Positions 10,943 through 63,003 of a stretch of DNA of 64,000 bases are shown piece by piece. The first letter of the stretch is position 1. Every line of letters starts with the position of its first letter. Both the position numbers and the translations under genes were made by a program. The stretch lies in the sequence record MK327944.1; one strand, given 5' to 3'. This stretch comes from Escherichia phage vB_EcoM_G2540-3. The notes under the pieces were generated by a model. The model made no database searches. It saw only the letters and a program-made list of their open reading frames with translations, and was not told where the DNA came from.

Positions 10943-12361
10943 TTATGGATAGGTATAAATGATACCAGTTTCTAAAGCAGTTTTATGAATGATGTATCCA
11001 TTGCGCGATTCTTGAACATCAACTTCTGGATAGTCTTTCATCATCTTCTGAAGAGTGTAACGATGCAGGTAGTATTTACTATCTGGATCTTCAGTTTTCC
11101 AATCTTTACCTTCTTCAGTCATTTTTTGGATTTCATCCATAACCCACCAACCGCACCAGATATAAGCTGAGCTACGATGTGGAAGAGGATGAACATAAGG
11201 TAATTCACCTTCTGGTTCCGGAGCAACTTTATCAGTCACTTGAACTTGACCTGTGGCTTTAACTGTTTTACTATCATAGTCAGTTGCTGTAACGACAGCA
11301 GTAACTTCAATAGTTTGACTTCCAATAGATGAGGTATCAACAGTATATACGTTAGTTGACCCTTCCACAGGAGAAGAATCTTTCTTCCATGAGTAAGTAA
11401 TTTGTGCTGCTTCAGGTGCGCCATTAACATTAGCAGTAAATGTAGCCGAAGCATCTTGCTGAACATTAATAGAAGGAGGAGTCAATGTAACCTGTGGATT
11501 CATTGTCTTCTTATTAACTGTCAATGATACTTCATTGGAAGTAACTTCCTTTTCATTATAATTTTCTGCAGTTACTTGGGCTACGCATTTAATTCTTTTT
11601 ACTCCACTTGTAGTTGGAGTATAGTTAAATGTAGAGTTAGTTTCTCCACCAACTTGTGAATCATCTACATACCACTGATACGTAGCAGACGCTCCGTCAG
11701 GTTGAGAAGCTAATGCAGCAGTAAATTGAACCGGGGTTCCAATTACTCCAGCAGCAGGACTAGCAGGAGTTACTGCCAAGGTAGTTGTCTGTGTCTTTTT
11801 ATTAACTGTCAATGATACTTCATTGGAAGTAACGCTCAGTGCATCATAATCTGTCGCAGTTACTTGAGCTACACACTTAATTTTTTTAACTCCGCTTGTA
11901 GTAGGAGTATAATTGAATGTAGCAGAAGTTGCTTCGCTCACAGGAGAACCGTCAACGTACCATTGATACGTAGCAGATGCGCCCGATGGCTGTGAAGCTA
12001 AGGCAGCAGTAAATTCAACGGCTGTTCCGATTACTCCTTCTGGAGGACTATTAGGAGTTACAGCTAAAGTAGTTGTCTGTGTTTTATTTTGAACTGTAAT
12101 AGTTGTACTAATTTCAGCTGTTTCAGCTTCAGAATCAGGAATAGTATTTGTTGCAACTACCTTAATAGTCTTTTGACCAGCAGGTCCTTTTAATACATAA
12201 TCAAAAGTTGCTGCTGATCCTTCTTGGGGAGCATTATCTACGCTCCAAGCATAGGTAATAGTTCCACCTCCAGTTTCACCACTGGGTGTAGCAGTAAACT
12301 GCTTGGTTTCATCAATAACCCCTGTTGGTGTTTTAGGAGTTATATCAACTGTAAAAGCCAT
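10943..12361 (-). CDS. hoc: highly immunogenic outer capsid protein Hoc with an extra Ig-like module
   Basis: 472 aa; N-terminus MAFTVDITPKTPTGVIDETKQFTATPSG... and C-terminal capsid-binding region PEPEGELPYVHPLPHRSSAYIWCGWWVMDEIQK as in T4 Hoc; internal 96-aa module duplicated. Confidence 0.9.
   Translation of the reverse strand: MAFTVDITPKTPTGVIDETKQFTATPSGETGGGTITYAWSVDNAPQEGSAATFDYVLKGPAGQKTIKVVATNTIPDSEAETAEISTTITVQNKTQTTTLAVTPNSPPEGVIGTAVEFTAALASQPSGASATYQWYVDGSPVSEATSATFNYTPTTSGVKKIKCVAQVTATDYDALSVTSNEVSLTVNKKTQTTTLAVTPASPAAGVIGTPVQFTAALASQPDGASATYQWYVDDSQVGGETNSTFNYTPTTSGVKRIKCVAQVTAENYNEKEVTSNEVSLTVNKKTMNPQVTLTPPSINVQQDASATFTANVNGAPEAAQITYSWKKDSSPVEGSTNVYTVDTSSIGSQTIEVTAVVTATDYDSKTVKATGQVQVTDKVAPEPEGELPYVHPLPHRSSAYIWCGWWVMDEIQKMTEEGKDWKTEDPDSKYYLHRYTLQKMMKDYPEVDVQESRNGYIIHKTALETGIIYTYP
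11505..12080 (-). repeat. in-frame tandem duplication (2 x 288 bp) of an Ig-like module inside hoc
   Basis: Units 11505-11792 and 11793-12080 both begin gtctt(c/t)ttattaactgtcaatgatacttcattggaagtaac; protein copies KTQTTTLAVTP...SNEVSLTVNKK. Confidence 0.75.
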
Positions 12362-13720: not shown

Positions 13721-15229
13721 ATGGATATTAAAGTACATTTTCACGACTTCAGTCATGTACGCATCGATTGTGAAGAGAGCACGTTCCACGAATTAAGAGA
13801 TTTCTTTTCGTTTGAGGCCGATGGATATAGATTTAACCCTCGCTTCAGATATGGCAACTGGGATGGACGAATCCGTCTTTTAGATTATAATCGTCTTCTT
13901 CCGTTTGGCTTAGTCGGGCAAATTAAAAAGTTCTGTGATAACTTTGGCTATAAAGCCTGGATTGACCCGCAAATTAACGAAAAAGAAGAATTATCAAGAA
14001 AAGATTTTGATGAATGGCTTTCTAAATTAGAAATCTATTCAGGAAATAAAAGAATTGAACCGCACTGGTATCAAAAAGATGCAGTGTTCGAAGGATTAGT
14101 TAATCGTCGTAGAATTCTTAATCTTCCAACATCCGCAGGTAAATCTTTAATTCAAGCTTTGCTTGCACGTTATTATTTGGAAAATTATGAAGGTAAAATT
14201 CTTATCATTGTTCCAACAACTGCTCTGACAACTCAGATGGCTGATGACTTCGTCGACTATCGTTTATTCAGTCATGCAATGATAAAGAAAATTGGTGGCG
14301 GAGCATCAAAAGATGATAAATATAAAAATGATGCACCAGTCGTTGTTGGTACATGGCAAACTGTAGTTAAACAACCGAAAGAATGGTTCTCACAGTTTGG
14401 AATGATGATGAATGATGAATGTCATCTTGCTACAGGAAAAAGTATTTCATCTATCATATCAGGTTTAAATAACTGCATGTTCAAATTCGGTTTGTCTGGT
14501 TCATTACGTGATGGCAAAGCCAATATCATGCAGTATGTTGGAATGTTTGGTGAAATATTTAAGCCAGTAACGACTTCTAAATTAATGGAAGATGGACAAG
14601 TAACTGAGCTAAAAATTAATAGTATTTTTCTTCGCTATCCAGATGAGTTCACTACTAAATTAAAGGGAAAAACTTATCAAGAAGAAATAAAAATTATTAC
14701 TGGGCTCAGTAAAAGAAATAAATGGATCGCTAAATTAGCTATTAAGCTTGCGCAAAAAGATGAAAACGCTTTTGTCATGTTTAAACATGTATCACATGGT
14801 AAAGCTATTTTCGATTTAATTAAAAACGAATACGATAAAGTTTATTACGTATCAGGGGAAGTTGATACAGAAACCCGCAATATAATGAAAACCTTAGCTG
14901 AAAACGGTAAAGGAATAATTATAGTAGCTAGTTATGGTGTATTTTCTACTGGTATTTCAGTTAAAAATCTGCATCACGTTGTTTTAGCACACGGTGTTAA
15001 ATCAAAAATCATTGTATTACAAACAATCGGTCGTGTATTACGTAAGCATGGTTCTAAAACAATCGCAACAGTCTGGGACCTCATAGATGACGCGGGTGTA
15101 GTTTCTAAATCAAAAACATCTTCTAAAAAATACTCGCATTTAAACTATCTTTTAAAACATGGACTTGATCGTATTCAGCGTTATGCTGATGAAAAGTTTA
15201 ATTATGTGATGAAAGAGGTTAAACTTTGA
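13721..15229 (+). CDS. uvsW: UvsW DNA/RNA helicase (SF2)
   Basis: 502 aa; Walker A LPTSAGKS, DEAH-box-like MMNDECH, C-terminal helicase motifs. Confidence 0.95.
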   Translation: MDIKVHFHDFSHVRIDCEESTFHELRDFFSFEADGYRFNPRFRYGNWDGRIRLLDYNRLLPFGLVGQIKKFCDNFGYKAWIDPQINEKEELSRKDFDEWLSKLEIYSGNKRIEPHWYQKDAVFEGLVNRRRILNLPTSAGKSLIQALLARYYLENYEGKILIIVPTTALTTQMADDFVDYRLFSHAMIKKIGGGASKDDKYKNDAPVVVGTWQTVVKQPKEWFSQFGMMMNDECHLATGKSISSIISGLNNCMFKFGLSGSLRDGKANIMQYVGMFGEIFKPVTTSKLMEDGQVTELKINSIFLRYPDEFTTKLKGKTYQEEIKIITGLSKRNKWIAKLAIKLAQKDENAFVMFKHVSHGKAIFDLIKNEYDKVYYVSGEVDTETRNIMKTLAENGKGIIIVASYGVFSTGISVKNLHHVVLAHGVKSKIIVLQTIGRVLRKHGSKTIATVWDLIDDAGVVSKSKTSSKKYSHLNYLLKHGLDRIQRYADEKFNYVMKEVKL

Positions 15230-15918
15230 ATTATAAATTAATATATGATAATTTAATTAATAGAGCCCAAAATCGGGCTCGCCTTAATGGATACACTGAA
15301 ACACATCATATAATTCCTAGATGTATGGGTGGTACAAATGATAAGTGTAATTTAGTAGAACTAACGGCTGAAGAACATTTTATAGCCCATAAACTTTTAG
15401 CTAAAATTCATCCAAACCATTACGGTATAATTAAAGCTGTTATATGTATGGGGATGAATTCAAATACTCATGAAAGACACGTTAATAAATCTTACGCATG
15501 GGAACGTCGTAAAATGGCAGAACTTCAATCCGGCGAAGGTAATCCATTTTACGGAAAACACCATACGGAAGAACATAAACAATATATGTCAAAACTCATG
15601 AAAAGTCGTCCAATTACATGGGGAAATAAAATTAGTAAAACTAAAAGAATGAACCCAACGAAATGGACTGAAGAAGCTAAAAGATTACATTCAATCAATC
15701 AATCGGGTAAAAATAACGGCATGTATGGAAGGAAACATTCCGCTAAATCTATTCAGAAAATTAAAGATAACATGCCAGATAATTCAGGAGCTAATAACCC
15801 AGCTGCTAAACCTATAGAAGTAAATGGTGTTAAGTATAAATGTATGAAAGATGCTTCTAAAGCTACTGGATTATCAATGTACAAACTAAGAATACTTAGA
15901 AAAACAGTTAATTTATAA
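15226..15918 (+). CDS. HNH homing endonuclease-like protein (MobE paralog) inserted between uvsW and uvsW.1
   Basis: 230 aa; MNYKLIYDNLINRAQ...ETHHIIPRCMGGTNDKCNLVELTAEEHFIAH parallels the mobE-like ORF at 42097-42831; NUMOD3-like GKHHTEEHK repeats; TTG start overlapping uvsW stop. Confidence 0.8.
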   Translation: MNYKLIYDNLINRAQNRARLNGYTETHHIIPRCMGGTNDKCNLVELTAEEHFIAHKLLAKIHPNHYGIIKAVICMGMNSNTHERHVNKSYAWERRKMAELQSGEGNPFYGKHHTEEHKQYMSKLMKSRPITWGNKISKTKRMNPTKWTEEAKRLHSINQSGKNNGMYGRKHSAKSIQKIKDNMPDNSGANNPAAKPIEVNGVKYKCMKDASKATGLSMYKLRILRKTVNL

Positions 15919-15930
15919 GGGCTTCGGCCC
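15919..15930 (+). terminator. hairpin GGGCUUCGGCCC after the HNH gene
   Basis: GC stem with UUCG loop followed by ttt. Confidence 0.45.
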
Positions 15931-15943
15931 TTTGGAGAAAAAG

Positions 15944-16174
15944 ATGTTACTAAAATTTAAACAATTTCTTTATGAAGCTTCTATTGATGAATTTATGGGT
16001 AAAATTGCCTCTTGTCAAACATTAGAAGGTTTAGAAGAACTTGAAGCTTATTATAAGAAAAGAGTCAAAGAAACTGAATTAAAAGATACTGATGACATCT
16101 CTGTGAGAGATGCTTTGGCAGGAAAAAGAGCTGAATTAGAAGATTCAGACGATGAAGTAGAAGAAAGCTTTTAA
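15944..16174 (+). CDS. uvsW.1: UvsW.1
   Basis: 76 aa from ATG 15944: MLLKFKQFLYEASIDEFMGKIASCQTLEGLEELEAYYKKRVKETELKD... Confidence 0.85.
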   Translation: MLLKFKQFLYEASIDEFMGKIASCQTLEGLEELEAYYKKRVKETELKDTDDISVRDALAGKRAELEDSDDEVEESF

Positions 16175-24869: not shown

Positions 24870-24923
24870 TCCTCATGTTATGTCAGTAAGACTACTATAA
24901 CACAACACGAGGGACTTGTAAAC
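24870..24923 (-). promoter_or_regulatory. early promoter and leader cassette, copy A
   Basis: - strand: GTTTACAAGTCCCTCGTGTTGTGTTATAGTAGTCTTACTGACATAACATGAGGA (TTTACA -35, TATAGT -10, GAGGA SD); identical to 38159-38212. Confidence 0.55.
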
Positions 24924-25280
24924 TACATTTTGAACTTTTTAGTACGCGTAATAGGCATGCGTCGATTTTATACTGTTTCATTGTTTGAAGAGCAGTATCA
25001 AAAACAGCATTAATGACACCAATTGGATTTCCACCCAAGTTTTTAAGCTTAACTAATGATAGTTTCTCATTAACACCTATCATTACGATATGCATCATTT
25101 TATCGCCCGGCTTAACGTTTTATTCGTATCACCGCCAGAGGTGTATGTACAAAATCTAAATCCAGGAAGCACGCTTTCTTCGCCGGCTTGAATAGCAAAA
25201 ATTTGTGGTATTTTATGCTTAGGATTTAAGTTAACAACCGGCGCCGAAGCGCCGTCAAATAATTCTGTAATAAGTTCCAT
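24895..25280 (-). pseudogene. partial paralog of the alt 5' region (~ first 125 codons) split over two frames
   Basis: MELITELFDGASAPVVNLNPKHKIPQIF...FCTYTSGGDTN and MMHIV...QYKIDACLLRVLKS parallel alt residues 1-130; 1-nt difference versus alt at gataaaatgatg shifts the frame. Confidence 0.5.
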
Positions 25281-25283
25281 GAT

Positions 25284-27393
25284 TTATCCTTGAACGAACT
25301 TGTAAGGCATGTTTGCAATATCTATGCAAGACGCAATAATTCCAAGAGATGATTCTACTTTCTGTTTAACATTTGATGAAACAAATGATGCAAAGTCAAC
25401 TCTATCTTCTATATCACCTGTCATTGTAACCAATTCACCAGTTTCCATTAAACGGTCACCGTCATAGATTACCGATTCGGTGAGTTCTTCTGTGGTCATA
25501 ACTTCAGCTTGAATAAGCTTGTTGTTAGTTCTAACTGTTCCATCGTTGTAAGATGCATCGGTTATTTTATTAACTTTGACCATTAATCCACGTGGCAAAA
25601 TGACTTCCATTTCATTTGAAGGCGCTAAACTTCCACCGGGTAAAACAACATTGACCTTATCAGCCCCAGTAATAACCCGCTAAACTTCCACCGGGTAAAA
25701 CAACATTGACCTTATCAGCCCCAGTAATAACCCATCCAATTCCAACTAAATTATCGCTAGAATTTACTAGTCCTTCATCAGTTTTATCAATAGAAACACT
25801 TAGACGCTTTTCGTCTGGTAAAACACCTATAGATGAATCAGTCATCCAAGTACCAAAAATATTTGGATATAATGATGTTGACACAAAGTTTCTAAAATAA
25901 AAAACTCGATTTTTTACCATTGCTTCATATATTGAAGGTAACATTCGTTGTGAACGATACAAAGTAATACCTTTTGGTAATCGTTCACCATTTTTAAAGG
26001 CTGAATCTAAATTATCAATGGCTTGTTCTATTTCAGGTGCTGTTAAAATACTTGTACGCTCATCTGGATTATATAATCCCAAAAGAGCATTATTTATGTC
26101 TACATATCCTGAACCTACATATTCACGAATTCCGCGTTTTTGCGCTGGTGTGTATTTAGATGAATCTTTATTTTCGACTATAGGATGTAATGACCATCCA
26201 GCGGTAAGAGCATATCCACGTAATTCTCTTCGAATAATCTTTGTTTTTATTGCATTCCAAGAATTTTGCACTAACTCATTATTCGCAGCGTCTTGATTTA
26301 AATGCGAATGTCTGTTAATATTTCTTTCAAACCAGGCACCTTTATATTTTTCTAAAGTATCATCGACGATAGAAGCAATAGTTTCTAAAGTTTTTATTGA
26401 AGTAATAGATTCTTTTCGTAATTTTTCTAAAGCTTTATTTTTTATTTCTGCATTAATAATGGATTCTTTATCTTCAGGAATTATAGAAGCTTCTCTGAAT
26501 GCCATCCCAGCTGTAACACTGCTAAGAGCATTCTCTAGTGCAAATCCTGAAGTAGAAATTACCGTTAATTCATTAGAATCAGAAATTAAAGGCGCGTCCG
26601 CTGGTTTATTTAATTCTGCCGCTGAAGCCTCAAATTTTTGAAACATCGGTGTTTCAAATCTAGAAGATTCCAATGACTGACTTTGTGCAATTGCTCTACG
26701 GGAAATTTTAACTTTAACGATTACAGCTTGGTCAGAACGTTTATCATTTTCTTGTGCAATAGATGCTGCAATTGCCTCATTTTTAGTTACTTGAGCTCCA
26801 GTATCTTTATTGATATAAACATCACCGACCTTCGATTCAACTTTAGTAAAGAGCTCGGTACTAATTTCCGGAACCCCTGGAATGTCTTCTAGTGATACAT
26901 TTTTGCGATGTATAAGAATATATGCATACTTTTTATCATAATCCCAGAGTTCCTTAAGAAGGACGTATCTGCCACCTGAACGACTACGGATAAGTCTATC
27001 AGCAATAACTTGAATTTGTCGAGCTTGGCCAGCAGTTTTAGACTTAAGAATACGAAGCATACAAGCATCAATTTTATACTGACGCATTGTTTGCATTGCA
27101 ACAGTAAAAACCGAATTGATATAATTAATTGGGCTTGGACCAAGACCTTTCAATTTAGCAATTGAACCTTTAGCGGTTAATGTAAAAGGAACAATATGCA
27201 TCATTTTATCGCCCATCTTTAAATCACGATTAGTATCACCTCCAGATGTATAGGTACATAAACGAAAGCCTGGTTGTTCAATTGCGTCATCAACATGAAC
27301 TGAAAAAATTTGCGGTATTTTCTTCTTTGGATTTAAGTTTGTAATCGGAAGAGTAGTATCTTCGTCAAATAATTCTGTAATTAGTTCCATCAT
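25284..27393 (-). pseudogene. alt: alt (capsid-packaged ADP-ribosyltransferase), frame broken by a 55-bp tandem duplication
   Basis: 577-aa ORF 25660-27393 with R...STS motif, then 108-aa ORF 25284-25610 in another frame; deleting one repeat copy restores a 684-aa frame. Confidence 0.8.
25624..25733 (-). repeat. perfect 55-bp direct tandem duplication inside alt
   Basis: gctaaacttccaccgggtaaaacaacattgaccttatcagccccagtaataaccc at 25624-25678 and again at 25679-25733, 100 percent identical. Confidence 0.95.
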
Positions 27394-42831: not shown

Positions 42832-45095
42832 TACAATTTACACGCTGCGCAATCATCGGCTTTTGGAGTTTCTATTTCATAATCATCAGTACCAGAACCA
42901 TCGCGGGTATTATGATAATAGAAATTTTTAATGCCATAATACCATCCGTATAGCATGTCATCAATCATTATTGACATTGGAACCTTTCCTTTTGGAAAAA
43001 TCTGTGGGTCATAATATGTATTCGCTGAAGCTGATTGACACACCCATTTCAGCATAATAGCTACCTGCGTAAGATAAGGTTTATTACCTTTCTTAGCTAA
43101 TTTCCACGTATAATCATATAGGTCTATGTTATGCTCAATATTGGGCACGACTTGATTAAAGGAACCCTCTTTTGATTCTTTAACAGAGACTGGTCCACGT
43201 GGAGGCTCGATACCGTTTGTACTGTTAGAAACTTGGGAAGATGACTCACATGGCATAAGTGCTGATAATGTGCTATTACGGATGCCAAAGAGCTTAAGGT
43301 CTTCCCGCAGCGCCGACCAGTCACAAACGTATTTTGGAGCTGCGATTTGGTCAATCTTTTTATTGTACCAGTCGATAGGTAATTCGCCTCGAGACCAACG
43401 AGTGTCTGAATAATATTCGCAAGGTCCTTTTTCTTTGGCGAGCTTAATGGATGCTTTAATGAGTCCATACTGTAATCTCTCAAATAGTTCATGTGTTAAA
43501 TCGTTAGCATCTTCATAAGAAGCAAAGTTACTTGCCAGCCAAGCTGCATAGTTAGTAACACCTACACCAAGGTTTCGACGCTTTTTAGCTTTTTCTGCTT
43601 CAGGAACTGGATATCCTTGGTAATCCAAAAGATTATCAAGAGCACGAACTTGAACTTCTGCTAATTCATTAATTTTATCTTGGTCTTGCCAATCGAAGTT
43701 ATCCAGCACAAATGCAGATAACGTGCACAATCCAATTTCAGCATCAGGACTATTCACATCATTTGTTGGAATAGCAATTTCACAGCACAAGTTACTCTGA
43801 CGAATAGGTGCCTTTTCACGAATAAACGGAGTATAGTTATTCGTATTATCAATGAACTGTACATAAATTCTTGCTGTTCCTGAACGTTCAGTCATGAGCA
43901 ATTCAAATAGTTCACGGGCTTTAATACGCTTTTTACGAATATTAGGGTCTTTTTCTGCTGCTTCGTATAATTCACGGAAACGGTCTTGGTCTTTAAAATA
44001 AGAATAATAAAGCTCTCCACCCATTTCATGTGGACTAAACAAAGTAATGTAATCGTTCTTTCCAAAACGTTCCATCATCAAATCATTCAGCTGGACACCA
44101 TAATCCATATGACGGATACGGTTTTCTTCTACGCCTTTGTTATTTTTCAAAACGAGAAGATTTTCAACTTCCAAATGCCAAATAGGATAATAAGCAGTAG
44201 CAGCGCCGCCACGAATTCCGCCCTGTGAACATGATTTAACAGCAGTCTGAAAATGTTTCCAAAAAGGAATAACACCAGTATGACGCACTTCACCTGTGCC
44301 AATCTTAGAACCTTCGGCACGAATCATACCAACGTTAATGCCGATTCCAGCTCGCTTGGAGATATATTCAACAATTGAAGCAGAAGCTTTGTTGATAGAC
44401 TTCAGCGAATCACCTGCCTCAATAACAACGCATGAACTAAACTGTCGAGTTGGAGTACGACATCCAGCCATAATAGGAGTTGGCAGTGAAATCTGTCGAG
44501 TAGATACTGCTTCATAAAAACGAATAACATGTTTTAATCTGTCAACAGGTTCATCTTGATGCAATGCCATTCCAATAGTCATAAATGCAAACTGCGGAGT
44601 TTCATAAATTTGACCAGTGGTTTTATCTTTAACGAGATATTTTTCTTTTAATTGCATCGCTCCGGAATAAGTAAATTCCATATCCCGCTCGTGCTTAATT
44701 TTTGATTCTAAAAATGTAATTTCTTCTGCAGAATATTTTGACAACAATTCAGGGTCGTATTTACCTTCATTTACACAGTAAGAAATATGGTCAATAAATG
44801 AACGTGGTTCATATTGTCCATAAACATGCTTACGAAGAGCAAACATTAAACAGCGTGCAGCTACATATTGATAATCAGGCTCTTCAACCGAAATAGAATT
44901 CGCAGCAGCCTTAATTACAATGGTTTGAATGTCATCAGTGGTCATTCCATCACGGAGATATGATTTAATATTTTCATATAATTCATAAGGATCTACAGAT
45001 GTTCCTTCAGCTGCCCAAGATAAAACTTTAATAATTTTTTGCGGGTCAAAGCTTTGAGAAACACCACTACTTTTGATAACATTAATTAATTGCAT
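42831..45095 (-). CDS. nrdA: ribonucleotide reductase large subunit NrdA
   Basis: 754 aa; class Ia RNR alpha with ATP-cone N-terminus. Confidence 0.95.
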   Translation of the reverse strand: MQLINVIKSSGVSQSFDPQKIIKVLSWAAEGTSVDPYELYENIKSYLRDGMTTDDIQTIVIKAAANSISVEEPDYQYVAARCLMFALRKHVYGQYEPRSFIDHISYCVNEGKYDPELLSKYSAEEITFLESKIKHERDMEFTYSGAMQLKEKYLVKDKTTGQIYETPQFAFMTIGMALHQDEPVDRLKHVIRFYEAVSTRQISLPTPIMAGCRTPTRQFSSCVVIEAGDSLKSINKASASIVEYISKRAGIGINVGMIRAEGSKIGTGEVRHTGVIPFWKHFQTAVKSCSQGGIRGGAATAYYPIWHLEVENLLVLKNNKGVEENRIRHMDYGVQLNDLMMERFGKNDYITLFSPHEMGGELYYSYFKDQDRFRELYEAAEKDPNIRKKRIKARELFELLMTERSGTARIYVQFIDNTNNYTPFIREKAPIRQSNLCCEIAIPTNDVNSPDAEIGLCTLSAFVLDNFDWQDQDKINELAEVQVRALDNLLDYQGYPVPEAEKAKKRRNLGVGVTNYAAWLASNFASYEDANDLTHELFERLQYGLIKASIKLAKEKGPCEYYSDTRWSRGELPIDWYNKKIDQIAAPKYVCDWSALREDLKLFGIRNSTLSALMPCESSSQVSNSTNGIEPPRGPVSVKESKEGSFNQVVPNIEHNIDLYDYTWKLAKKGNKPYLTQVAIMLKWVCQSASANTYYDPQIFPKGKVPMSIMIDDMLYGWYYGIKNFYYHNTRDGSGTDDYEIETPKADDCAACKL

Positions 45096-45411
45096 AAGTC
45101 CTCAACTTGAAAATCGTCTTTAAACAATCGGTTAACTATATGAGCTATTATATCACCATGACACGGCTTTGGTTTACATGTGCATCCTAGCCTCATTCCA
45201 CGTAAAGGCTCTAAATGTGCTTTAGTTATTTCTCCGGATTTAATTCGACGTATAAAATCTTTTTTGAATAATTCAATGGCAGCCTCCCGGCTGCCAGCAT
45301 CTTTACCGACGTAATTTCCCAAAATGTACCACGGTGAATATTAACATCAAAGTCGGATTTATATTTATTCACTACCTGGCATAGACGGCCCGCGCGGTGA
45401 TAATTCGTCAT
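45086..45411 (-). pseudogene. DUF4326-like gene split by a single-base frameshift in a G-run
   Basis: Frame A from ATG 45411 gives ...FDVNIHRGTFW; frame B continues GNYVGKDAGSREAAIELF...LGCTCKPKPCHGDII; one extra G in ttttggg would fuse them into 108 aa. Confidence 0.45.
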
Positions 45412-59208: not shown

Positions 59209-62157
59209 ATGGCTACTTTAAAACAAATACAATTTAAAAGAAGCAAAACTGCAGGTCAACGTCCTGCTGCTTCAGTATTAGCCGAAGGTGAATTGGCTAT
59301 AAACTTAAAAGATAAAACAATTTTCACAAAAGATGACTCAGGCAGTGTTATAGAATTAGGTTTAAAATATGGAGGAACAATTGATGGTTCTTTAACTGTT
59401 AATGGAAATATAATTGGAAATTTAACAGGTAACGCTGCAACTGCAACGAAATTAAAAACAGCACGAAAAATTAATGGTATATCCTTTGATGGGTCAAAAG
59501 ATATCACGCTAACTCCATCTGACATAAATGTCAATAGCACAACGTTTATAAAAAATAATGGCGAATTACCTGTTGATGCTAATTTAGATACGTATGGGCC
59601 TGTTGAAGAATATCTTGGAGTTTGGTCGAAAGCAACTTCAACCAACGCTCAACCAGCAAATAAATTTCCAGAAGAAAATGCTGTAGGTGTGCTAGAAGTA
59701 TTTGTGGCCGGTCAATTTGCTGGTACTCAGAGATATACAACTAGATACGGAAATGTTTATATTCGTTCCTTGACTGCTACATGGAACGGAGTAAACGGTC
59801 CGTGGAGTGCGTGGCGAAATATTCAATCTGGTACTCGTCCACTGTCAACAACGATTGATCTTAATGATCTAGGAGGCGCTGAACACCTTGGTTTGTGGCG
59901 AAATAGTTCAAATTCCATTGCTACCTTTGACAGAAATTTCCCAGAAGAAGGATCGTCCGCTCAAGGACTTTTAGAAGTATATGAAGGTGGAAACTATTCT
60001 CGCACACAGAGATATACGACCAGATTTGGTGTTGTTTATACTCGTTGTCTTGCTGCTGCGTGGGATGCTTCTGCGCCTAAATGGGGACCTTGGCAACAAG
60101 TCGGTAATGTCACACCGGCGACTTTCTATGACGGAGATCTGAATGATTTTAAAACTCCTGGGTTATATAATATTTTAGGCACTGATGCCGTTATTAACTG
60201 TCCTACCGGTGAAGGTTTGCCGACTGTTATTGTTGGTTTGCTGGAAGTTAAACAGCGTGCTTCTGGCGGTGCTATTTTCCAAAAATTTACTACTGCCGGA
60301 ACGGGTGCAACTACTCGCGATCGTATTTTTGAGCGTGCATATACTGGTGGTGTGTGGGGTGCATGGAACGAAGTATATACATCTTACTCTCTGCCAATTA
60401 CTTTAGGTATGGGTGGTATTAAAACTCAATTAGCGGAGCTAGATTGGCAAACATTTGATTTTGTTCCTGGTAGTATGTTTAGCGTTCCTTTGAACAAAAT
60501 AAAGAACATGCCAGCTAATATGAATTGGGGCACGATTGACGGAAACTTAATTATGTTTTCTGTTGGTCCTAGCGAGCACACCAGCACAGGACGTACTGTT
60601 CAGGTTTGGCGTGGAACTGTATCCCAGACAAACTATCGTTATTTTGTCGTTCGTGTGTTCGGTAATTCTGGAAATAGAACTTGCACAGTTCGCCGTGTTG
60701 TTCTTGAAGATGGATCACATACTTGGACTGCTCAACAAAACTTTAGGGGATTGTTGAATATCACTGCTGCTGTTAATCTTGGTGCTAATCAGAAAATTTC
60801 ACTTGCTCCAGGAGCATATATTCAAGCCCCTGCTAGCGGTTCTGGTTCTAATACTTACGCGAATCAGAATACTACCATTGCACCATTATATCAGGCCATT
60901 GACGATTCAAATAAAAACCAGTTTGCGCCAATTGTTAAACAGAAAAACACTGTAACAAATATTACTATGGCTTCTGGTATGGATATTGCTAGTTCAGAAT
61001 ATCGTATCGTTGCTCAGGGTGATTTATCCGCTACTGGAACTACAGCCACTAAATTAGCTACATGGCGTTTCTTGCCGTCTGGCCGATTCATGTCACAAAG
61101 CCGAGTTTATGCTGGCGCAGCATTCTTGAACACTGATGGTAACATTGCTGGTTCAATCTGGAAGAAATACAACGATGCAACCAATTTAGATGCTGCCTTG
61201 AATACTCGCCTAGGTAAAGGCGGTGATACGATGACAGGTCGGTTAACAATCAATGCACCTAATGATTCTATCGTATTATCAACAACTGCTAGTAATTCTT
61301 TGCATATTCGCGGTGACATAGACGGGACTGGTAACTGGTATATTGGCAAGGGTGGTGCTGATAATTCGCTAGCATTTTATAGCTATGCTACTCAGGCGGC
61401 AGTACATATCACAAACAATGGTGAGATTTCGCTAAATCCACAAAATATCGCAATGGTTAACGTTAACCGCGATCGTGTACACATTAACGGTTCTGGATGG
61501 ATTGCTAGACAACCGGGTGATTGGGGCAACCAATGGCGAGTAGAAGCTCCATTATTCGTCGATCATGGTTATGTTTCACAGGATTGTTATTATCCAATTA
61601 TTAAAGGAAGAAGTGTAATCACCAATCAAGGGTTTGTAACTGCCGTCGATCTTGGTATTCGTCGTGTCCCTAACAATTGGGGGCAAGCAATTATTCGTGT
61701 TGGATCTGCAGAGGCATCGCCAGCGGCTGAACACCCTAACGCGGTATTTGAATTTCATTACGACGGTACTTTCTATTCTCCTGGTAATGGTAACTTTAAC
61801 GATGTGTATATTCGTTCCGATGGTCGTCTTAAGATTAATAAAAAAGAGCTAGAAAACGGAGCACTTGAAAAAGTATGTCGACTGAAAGTTTATATTTACG
61901 ATAAAGTTAAGTCTATTAAAGACCGTAGTGTTATTAAACGTGAAGTTGGTATTATTGCTCAGGACCTTGAAAAGGAATTACCGGAAGCTGTATCTAAAGT
62001 TGAAGTTGATGGATCTGATGTTCTGACAATTTCTAACTCTACAGTGAATGCTCTTTTAATTAAGGCTATTCAGGAAATGAGTGAAGAAATTAAAGAATTG
62101 AAAACGCCTCTCTTTACTAAAATTGCTCGCAAAATTAGTAAATATTTTAAATTCTAA
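59209..62157 (+). CDS. 37: long tail fibre distal subunit gp37 with C-terminal intramolecular-chaperone-like domain
   Basis: 982 aa; last 113 aa begin [20 protein letters not shown], resembling S74-type autoproteolytic chaperone domains. Confidence 0.9.
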
Positions 62158-62163
62158 CAACAA

Positions 62164-62178
62164 GGGGGAAATGCCCCC
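62164..62178 (+). terminator. hairpin after gene 37
   Basis: ggggg-aaatg-ccccc followed by tttgg. Confidence 0.4.
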
Positions 62179-62193
62179 TTTGGAGTATAAATT

Positions 62194-62973
62194 ATGGCAG
62201 TAGTTGGAGTTCCTGGCTGGATTGGAAGTTCAGCCGTAAATGAAACGGGTCAGCGCTGGATGAGTCAAGCAGCTGGTCAATTAAGATTGGGTGTTCCTTG
62301 CTGGATGAGTCAATTTGCAGGTCGCTCAAGAGAAATTATTCATACACTTGGAGCAGACCATAACTTCAATGGTCAATGGTTCCGAGATAGATGTTTTGAG
62401 GCAGGTAGTACACCTATAGTGTTTAATATCACTGGAGATTTAGTATCATATTCTAAAGATGTTCCTTTATTCTTCATGTACGGAGATACACCGAATGAAT
62501 ATGTTCAGTTGAATATACACGGCGTAACGATGTATGGACGTGGCGGTAATGGCGGTAGCAATAGTCCTGGTTCAGCTGGAGGTCATTGTATTCAAAACGA
62601 TATTGGTGGGAGACTAAGAATTAATAATGGCGGAGCTATTGCTGGAGGCGGCGGCGGCGGCGGCGGCGGCAACAGGGGTAGACTATCCTTTGACGGCGGA
62701 GGCGGTCGTCCATTTGGCGCTGGTGGGTCTTCCTCTCATATGAGTGCTGGTGCAACCAGCGGCACTATTTACGCTCCGGGTGCAGGATCTGTCGGTGAGG
62801 GGTCTCTTAGTGCATATACAGGCGGGAATGGCGGTGAAGTTGGCTCCGCAGGAGGTAGATGTAATACTCACGGTACCGGTACAGAATATGACGGCGGTGC
62901 TGCTGGTTATGCCGTCATAGGGTCTACACCGACATGGCAAAATGTTGGAGCAATATATGGTCCAAGAGTATAA
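62194..62973 (+). CDS. 38: T2-type receptor-recognising adhesin gp38 (glycine-rich motifs)
   Basis: 259 aa with several poly-Gly blocks ([49 protein letters not shown]) separated by variable segments. Confidence 0.85.
62647..62670 (+). repeat. (GGC)8 trinucleotide run encoding poly-Gly in gp38
   Basis: ggcggcggcggcggcggcggcggc, preceded by gga, gives nine consecutive Gly. Confidence 0.95.
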
Positions 62974-63003
62974 TTTGAATAAATATCCTTAAAAGGAGGG
63001 TCT

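Follow-up and report, generated by a model that had tools for sequence, protein, structure and literature searches.

A perfect 55-bp tandem repeat in the alt gene of Escherichia phage vB_EcoM_G2540-3, probably an untrimmed assembler overlap

Does Escherichia phage vB_EcoM_G2540-3 carry a broken alt gene, or did the break enter its genome record during assembly? Alt is the injected NAD+:arginine ADP-ribosyltransferase of the T-even phages (T4 Alt, AAD42533.1), and in the record of this phage (MK327944.1) its gene is written as two open reading frames, split by a perfect tandem repeat of 55 bp. We analyzed the locus within a stretch of 64,000 nucleotides of that record, called the window below. 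An initial annotation of the same DNA had left a natural allele and an assembly artefact side by side as explanations. The length of the repeat (equal to k = 55), its unique junction, the lack of decay in the gene and borders with 1 nt of microhomology now favor the artefact and make a biological reading less likely. We put the probability at about three in four that the duplication is an untrimmed k = 55 assembler overlap and that the phage has a normal, intact Alt of 684 aa.

The alt locus and its reading frames

The window is a T4-like (Tequatrovirus) segment, in which searches with T4 proteins (tblastn) show the gene order of T4 from gene 18 through to asiA. The alt locus lies on the minus strand, with gp54 and the alt.-3/-2/-1 remnants on one side and alt.1 and the DNA ligase gene gp30 on the other; this conserved position and the high identity to T4 are those of a T4 Alt orthologue. 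T4 Alt itself matches the window in two frames, residues 1–570 with 98.8% identity and residues 553–682 with 98.5% identity. We also note that the alt.-2 and alt.-1 remnants (24895–25280) are 67 and 61 aa long and are 100% and 95% identical, respectively, to those of T4. The features of the divided gene are as follows.

25660–27393, minus strand: alt 5′ ORF, 577 aa; contains the N-terminal MMELITE... segment and positions 1–153 of the 196 of the ADP-ribosyltransferase (ART) domain, without the E-x-E motif
25284–25610, minus strand: alt 3′ ORF, 108 aa; begins at the Met of E-M-E (MEVILPRG) and contains ART profile positions 161–195
25624–25678: 55-bp unit, copy 1, the downstream copy in the alt transcript; frame shifted, with TGA after GYYWG
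25679–25733: 55-bp unit, copy 2, the upstream copy in the transcript; W554–A572 in the correct alt frame
26278–26280, minus strand: 3-bp in-frame insertion, giving an extra Asn (DAANNELV, as against DAANELV in T4 and e11/2 Alt)

The repeat is exactly as the initial annotation had described it. Direct string comparison finds 25624–25678 identical to 25679–25733, with no spacer between the copies, and Tandem Repeats Finder reports an array at 25623–25733 with a period of 55, 2.0 copies, 100% matches and no indels. The 55-mer is found at these two places only, and a chance origin is ruled out, as 0 matches are expected in shuffled sequence. The duplicated unit runs from the second base of the W554 codon to the second base of the A572 codon. 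The junction between the two copies reads ...AGTAATAACCC/GCTAAACTTCC... (also written ...CCCAGTAATAACCC/GCTAAACTTCCACC...), and the single-copy arrangement is ...TTTGAAGGC, then one 55-bp unit, then ATCCAATTCC....

The 577-aa frame starts at 27393, crosses the transcript-proximal copy and stops five codons into the second copy, so that its C-terminus is ...VVLPGGSLAGYYWG-stop (…PGGSLA-GYYWG-stop); the ORF list likewise bears out the claim that the remaining 108 codons lie in another frame. Deletion of one 55-mer leaves 2055 nt and, as had been predicted, a single 684-aa frame, which reads ...PGGSLAPSNEMEVILPRG.... This repaired protein is 99% identical to the Alt of phage e11/2, from which it differs at three positions; for T4 Alt the identity is about 98.5%, with 10 substitutions or indels over 682 aa and an additional Met upstream. 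At the nucleotide level the gene without the extra 55 bp is 99.3% identical to e11/2 alt. The 108 out-of-frame codons specify amino acids identical to those of e11/2 and neither half of the gene is decayed, on which ground we reject an old pseudogene. The extra Asn encoded at 26278–26280 is harmless. A 684-aa Alt is also present in a metagenome locus (L012).

Could the C-terminal part still be made from the gene as written, by programmed frameshifting or by re-initiation? We reject both: no slippery heptamer was seen ahead of the TGA when the junction was read, no Shine-Dalgarno-like sequence was seen upstream of the ATG of the 108-aa ORF, and that internal ORF is without E576. Neither the exact 577-aa product nor the exact 108-aa product is on record.

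Elsewhere in the window there are several other departures from T4. The 502-aa uvsW and an 80-aa uvsW.1-type ORF (PF11637), together at 13721–16174, are separated by a 230-aa ORF at 15226–15918, which contains NUMOD3 motifs and is 50% identical to the homing endonuclease MobE of T4; it resembles a free-standing endonuclease gene that has been inserted between the uvsW parts, annotated in the T4 GenBank record as one 587-aa UvsW. A 218-aa ORF (1321–1977) occupies a roughly 770-bp gap between genes 18 and 19, where the T4 gap is about 116 bp; it has no Pfam match, and its Cys-rich sequence and His/Asn motifs are reminiscent of an HNH-type homing endonuclease. The hoc gene (10946–12361) is longer than that of T4 and contains a 288-bp tandem repeat at 11504–12097 (about 2.1 copies, 79% identity), and T4 Hoc aligns in two overlapping registers; this is probably an extra Ig-like domain. 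The distal tail-fiber region (59209–63000) is unlike that of T4, with a match to the first 66 aa of gp37 only and no T4-type gp38, which points to an adhesin module like that of T2/T6. The window lacks SegG, cd.4 and nrdB.1, the mobE homologue is 62% identical to that of T4, and the td-intron I-TevI protein is 100% identical to its T4 counterpart.

Catalytic residues on the two sides of the repeat

The R-S-EXE motif is the signature of the arginine-specific ARTs, among which the T-phage Alt and Mod enzymes are listed (PMC3102197). The repaired 684-aa protein matches the Pfam profile PF03496 (ADPrib_exo_Tox) with 120.3 bits (cut-off 23.4) over profile positions 1–195 of 196 and residues 376–616. 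In the gene as written, this match is divided between the 577-aa ORF (1–153) and the 108-aa ORF (161–195). The three elements of the motif lie as follows.

25954–25956, minus strand: codon of the catalytic Arg, R480 (LYR), aligned with VYR (R345) of CdtA
25873–25881, minus strand: STS motif, codons S505-T506-S507 (FVSTSL), assigned by motif pattern inside the Pfam envelope
25605–25613, minus strand: E-x-E motif, codons E576-M577-E578, out of frame with the 5′ ORF as written

That these residues form an R-S-EXE triad had been proposed from the sequence, and for the Arg and the glutamates the proposal stands on alignment. The ...GITLYR(480) of Alt aligns with ...NLTVYR of CdtA, whose R345 (2wn4 numbering) is the catalytic Arg in strand β1, and SNEMEVILPRG aligns with AGEYEVLLNHG, such that EME corresponds to the catalytic E428-Y-E430 of CdtA. 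The phmmer alignment did not place Alt FVSTSL on CdtA FISTSI, and for the STS, which in these enzymes belongs to strand β2, the assignment is by motif pattern. The substitution E577A abolishes ADP-ribosylation by T4 Alt, and phage that carry it are viable (PMC11404850). GenBank numbers the two glutamates of T4 Alt E574 and E576, and counted from the upstream Met they are E575 and E577; we therefore infer that the E577 of that study is the second Glu of E-M-E, counted in the latter way.

As written, then, the E-x-E, whose place in these enzymes is the ARTT loop/strand β5, is not in the same polypeptide as the R and the S, and it joins them when one 55-mer is removed. The initial annotation had placed the duplication at the E-x-E. 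The motif is indeed lost from the frame, but the junction lies 3 codons upstream of E576-M577-E578, before the motif and not inside it. The expectation of a 577-aa product that keeps its N-terminus and lacks the catalytic glutamates agrees with the sequence, in which MMELITE..., LYR and STS are retained. The N-terminal MMELITE/LF is conserved in the repaired Alt, and the annotation of X15811 has 6 aa cleaved off there.

Origin of the 55-bp repeat

A 44-mer centered on the junction has no match in 50,697 phage records, a 36-mer has none in the viral or metagenome contig collections, and a 90-mer found nothing in the phage records. The 40 alt matches listed all span 2052–2058 bp, compared with 2110 bp in the query, so each of them holds a single copy. 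In all, more than 500 alt-bearing records and the contig collections contain no other instance of the duplication. Ten loci have an identical gp54; in all of them alt is intact (682–697 aa) and none has the 55-bp unit twice, the unit being present once in seven and diverged by more than five mismatches in three. The best-matching GenBank phages are 96–97% identical over 24 kb and the gp54-sharing contigs 96–98% identical over the region; the exact gp30 product is not on record. Thus the expectation that relatives would have one copy of the 55-mer held in every relative examined, and the intact Alt in all of them implies selection for Alt. Some relatives, phiC600P9 (L011) among them, have a second full-length alt paralogue, of 685 aa, in the place of alt.-2/alt.-1; the two full paralogues of L011 are 685 and 682 aa long.

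A repeat of this kind would be left by a simple omission in genome assembly. T4-like genomes are circularly permuted and hence assemble as circles, which SPAdes and metaSPAdes write as a linear contig with the last k-mer repeated at both ends. With k = 55, a value in the default SPAdes series 21, 33, 55, this end overlap is 55 bases, and neighboring contigs of the assembly graph overlap by 55 bases too. Were such a contig rotated ("reopened") to the T4 start, or two contigs butt-joined, and the trimming of one overlap skipped, a perfect, spacer-less 55-bp tandem repeat would result at an arbitrary internal position; here the site would by chance lie in alt, with the catalytic E-x-E 3 codons further on. 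The 55-bp SPAdes overlap has been described for the T4-like phage 132 (PMC8483715) and for coliphages of about 170 kb (PMC12509680), and workflows for T4-like phages trim it before the genome is reopened at the T4 start (PMC8483715, PMC12509680). An equivalent overlap of 127 bp has also been reported (PMC5923482). In MK327944.1 the repeat has the length of an assembler k, its two perfect copies are adjacent, and it is absent from the independent assemblies of related genomes, all as an artefact of this type should appear. The best records are only 96–98% identical and no same-strain genome was found, so we infer the assembly history (the assembler and the rotation step), while the repeat, its length, its uniqueness and the intact remainder of the gene can be read directly.

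General poor quality of the assembly finds little support. One further frameshift, in nrdA.1, was found among 93 T4 proteins tested; the other 91 homologues are either intact or variant in a natural way, and the defects are thus not general. The nrdA.1 gene (45086–45411, minus strand) has a 1-nt deletion in a run of C at 45317–45318 (CCCC in T4, CCC here), which divides it into two frames with ORFs of 61 and 78 aa; in the eight closest phage records listed the match spans 582 nt in every case, one more than the 581 nt of the query. Either the frameshift is real or the homopolymer was misread in sequencing, and the loss from the C run hints at incomplete polishing of the sequence.

T-even phages do undergo small tandem duplications, and a real, very recent and spontaneous 55-bp duplication, fixed for example by plaque purification, would likewise frameshift alt and give a null allele. 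Such an allele can survive, since alt is dispensable, as the recovery of viable T4 Alt E577A phage demonstrates (PMC11404850). This is also a point against an artefact: to survive, a real mutation needs to fall in a dispensable gene, as this junction does, and an artefact has no such need. The locus, moreover, has a history of real duplication, in alt.-1/alt.-2 of T4 and in the two full paralogues of L011, and the truncated ORF does end at position 153 of the 196 of PF03496. A duplication in the phage itself would, however, make the length of exactly 55 a coincidence with the assembler k. It would have arisen at borders that lack a short direct repeat: they share 1 nt (C), no more than chance, and therefore slippage between short direct repeats, which we considered as an origin, is not indicated. 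It would also be unique among the more than 500 alt-bearing records and contig collections, its downstream 108 codons are undecayed, and it would disable a protein that selection appears to have kept intact in every relative examined. We accordingly regard a real duplication as unlikely.

Were it real, the 577-aa Alt would retain the N-terminal head-targeting/processing segment, the Arg and the STS; E576/E578, the final strands of the ART fold and the C-terminal tail would be missing. It would be enzymatically dead; on injection, RNA polymerase α would escape ADP-ribosylation, as would the other Alt targets, and ModA and ModB would still act later. A wild T4-like phage would then package and inject a catalytically dead, truncated Alt, which would separate the structural role of this head protein from its enzymatic one; this reading is likewise unlikely.

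Two perfect 55-bp copies are about the minimum homology for T4 recombination, and a real duplication might revert measurably by recombination between them, which would make the state of an injected host-takeover/anti-toxin enzyme reversible. Taken further, the repeat could be an on/off allele, lost precisely at appreciable frequency so that stocks are mixtures of alt-off and alt-on phage, in a crude form of phase variation. Only its structure speaks for this, in that precise excision within a perfect tandem repeat restores the wild-type frame. But the collections searched contain no second example, there is no sign that the off state is selected for, and every argument against a real duplication applies here too; we consider such an allele highly improbable. 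An untrimmed assembler overlap within an otherwise intact alt remains the explanation that we prefer.

Consequences for the record and comparison with known systems

If the repeat is an artefact, the record should be corrected by removal of one 55-mer, with alt then annotated as one gene of 684 aa. A search of reopened phage genomes for internal exact tandem repeats of 55, 77, 99 or 127 bp would then be a simple screen for this kind of curation error. A real repeat would amount to a null allele, specific to this strain, of a dispensable and well-studied gene, and to no new kind of biology; the phage would be a natural alt-minus T-even phage, which could be useful for study of the role of Alt in early transcription and in countering host toxins.

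The gene agrees with that for T4 Alt (AAD42533.1) in gene order, the PF03496 domain, the LYR...STS...EME residues and the N-terminal MELITE segment. It differs in the 55 extra bp that shift the frame 3 codons before the E-x-E, in one extra Asn and in a nucleotide divergence of 1–2%. Among ARTs with solved structures the relevant comparison is with the clostridial binary-toxin enzymes (CdtA, iota Ia), arginine-specific R-S-EXE proteins in which LTVYR and E428-x-E430 align with the ITLYR and EME of Alt. The relationship is distant (E about 4e-5), and Alt differs in having an N-terminal extension of roughly 400 aa for head packaging and in its targets, which are RNA polymerase and further E. coli proteins and not actin.

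Within T4 itself the closest parallel to the repeat is alt.-1/alt.-2, annotated as an old partial duplication of alt (its 5′ part). There, too, alt sequence was duplicated at this locus and the frame then disrupted, and the remnants are also in the window. That duplication, however, is old, with about 60% amino acid identity to alt, and is common to many phages, whereas the 55-bp repeat is perfect and unique.

The SPAdes end overlap is another likeness: it shares with the repeat a length of exactly 55, perfect identity, the lack of a spacer and an arbitrary position, and the genome is a T4-like one of the sort that is normally reopened to T4 coordinates. The published overlaps differ in lying at contig ends, where they are trimmed; the present one is internal and would require rotation or joining without trimming. 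Whether artefact or real, the finding is within known territory, that of T4 Alt and the R-S-EXE ARTs or that of assembler end overlaps.
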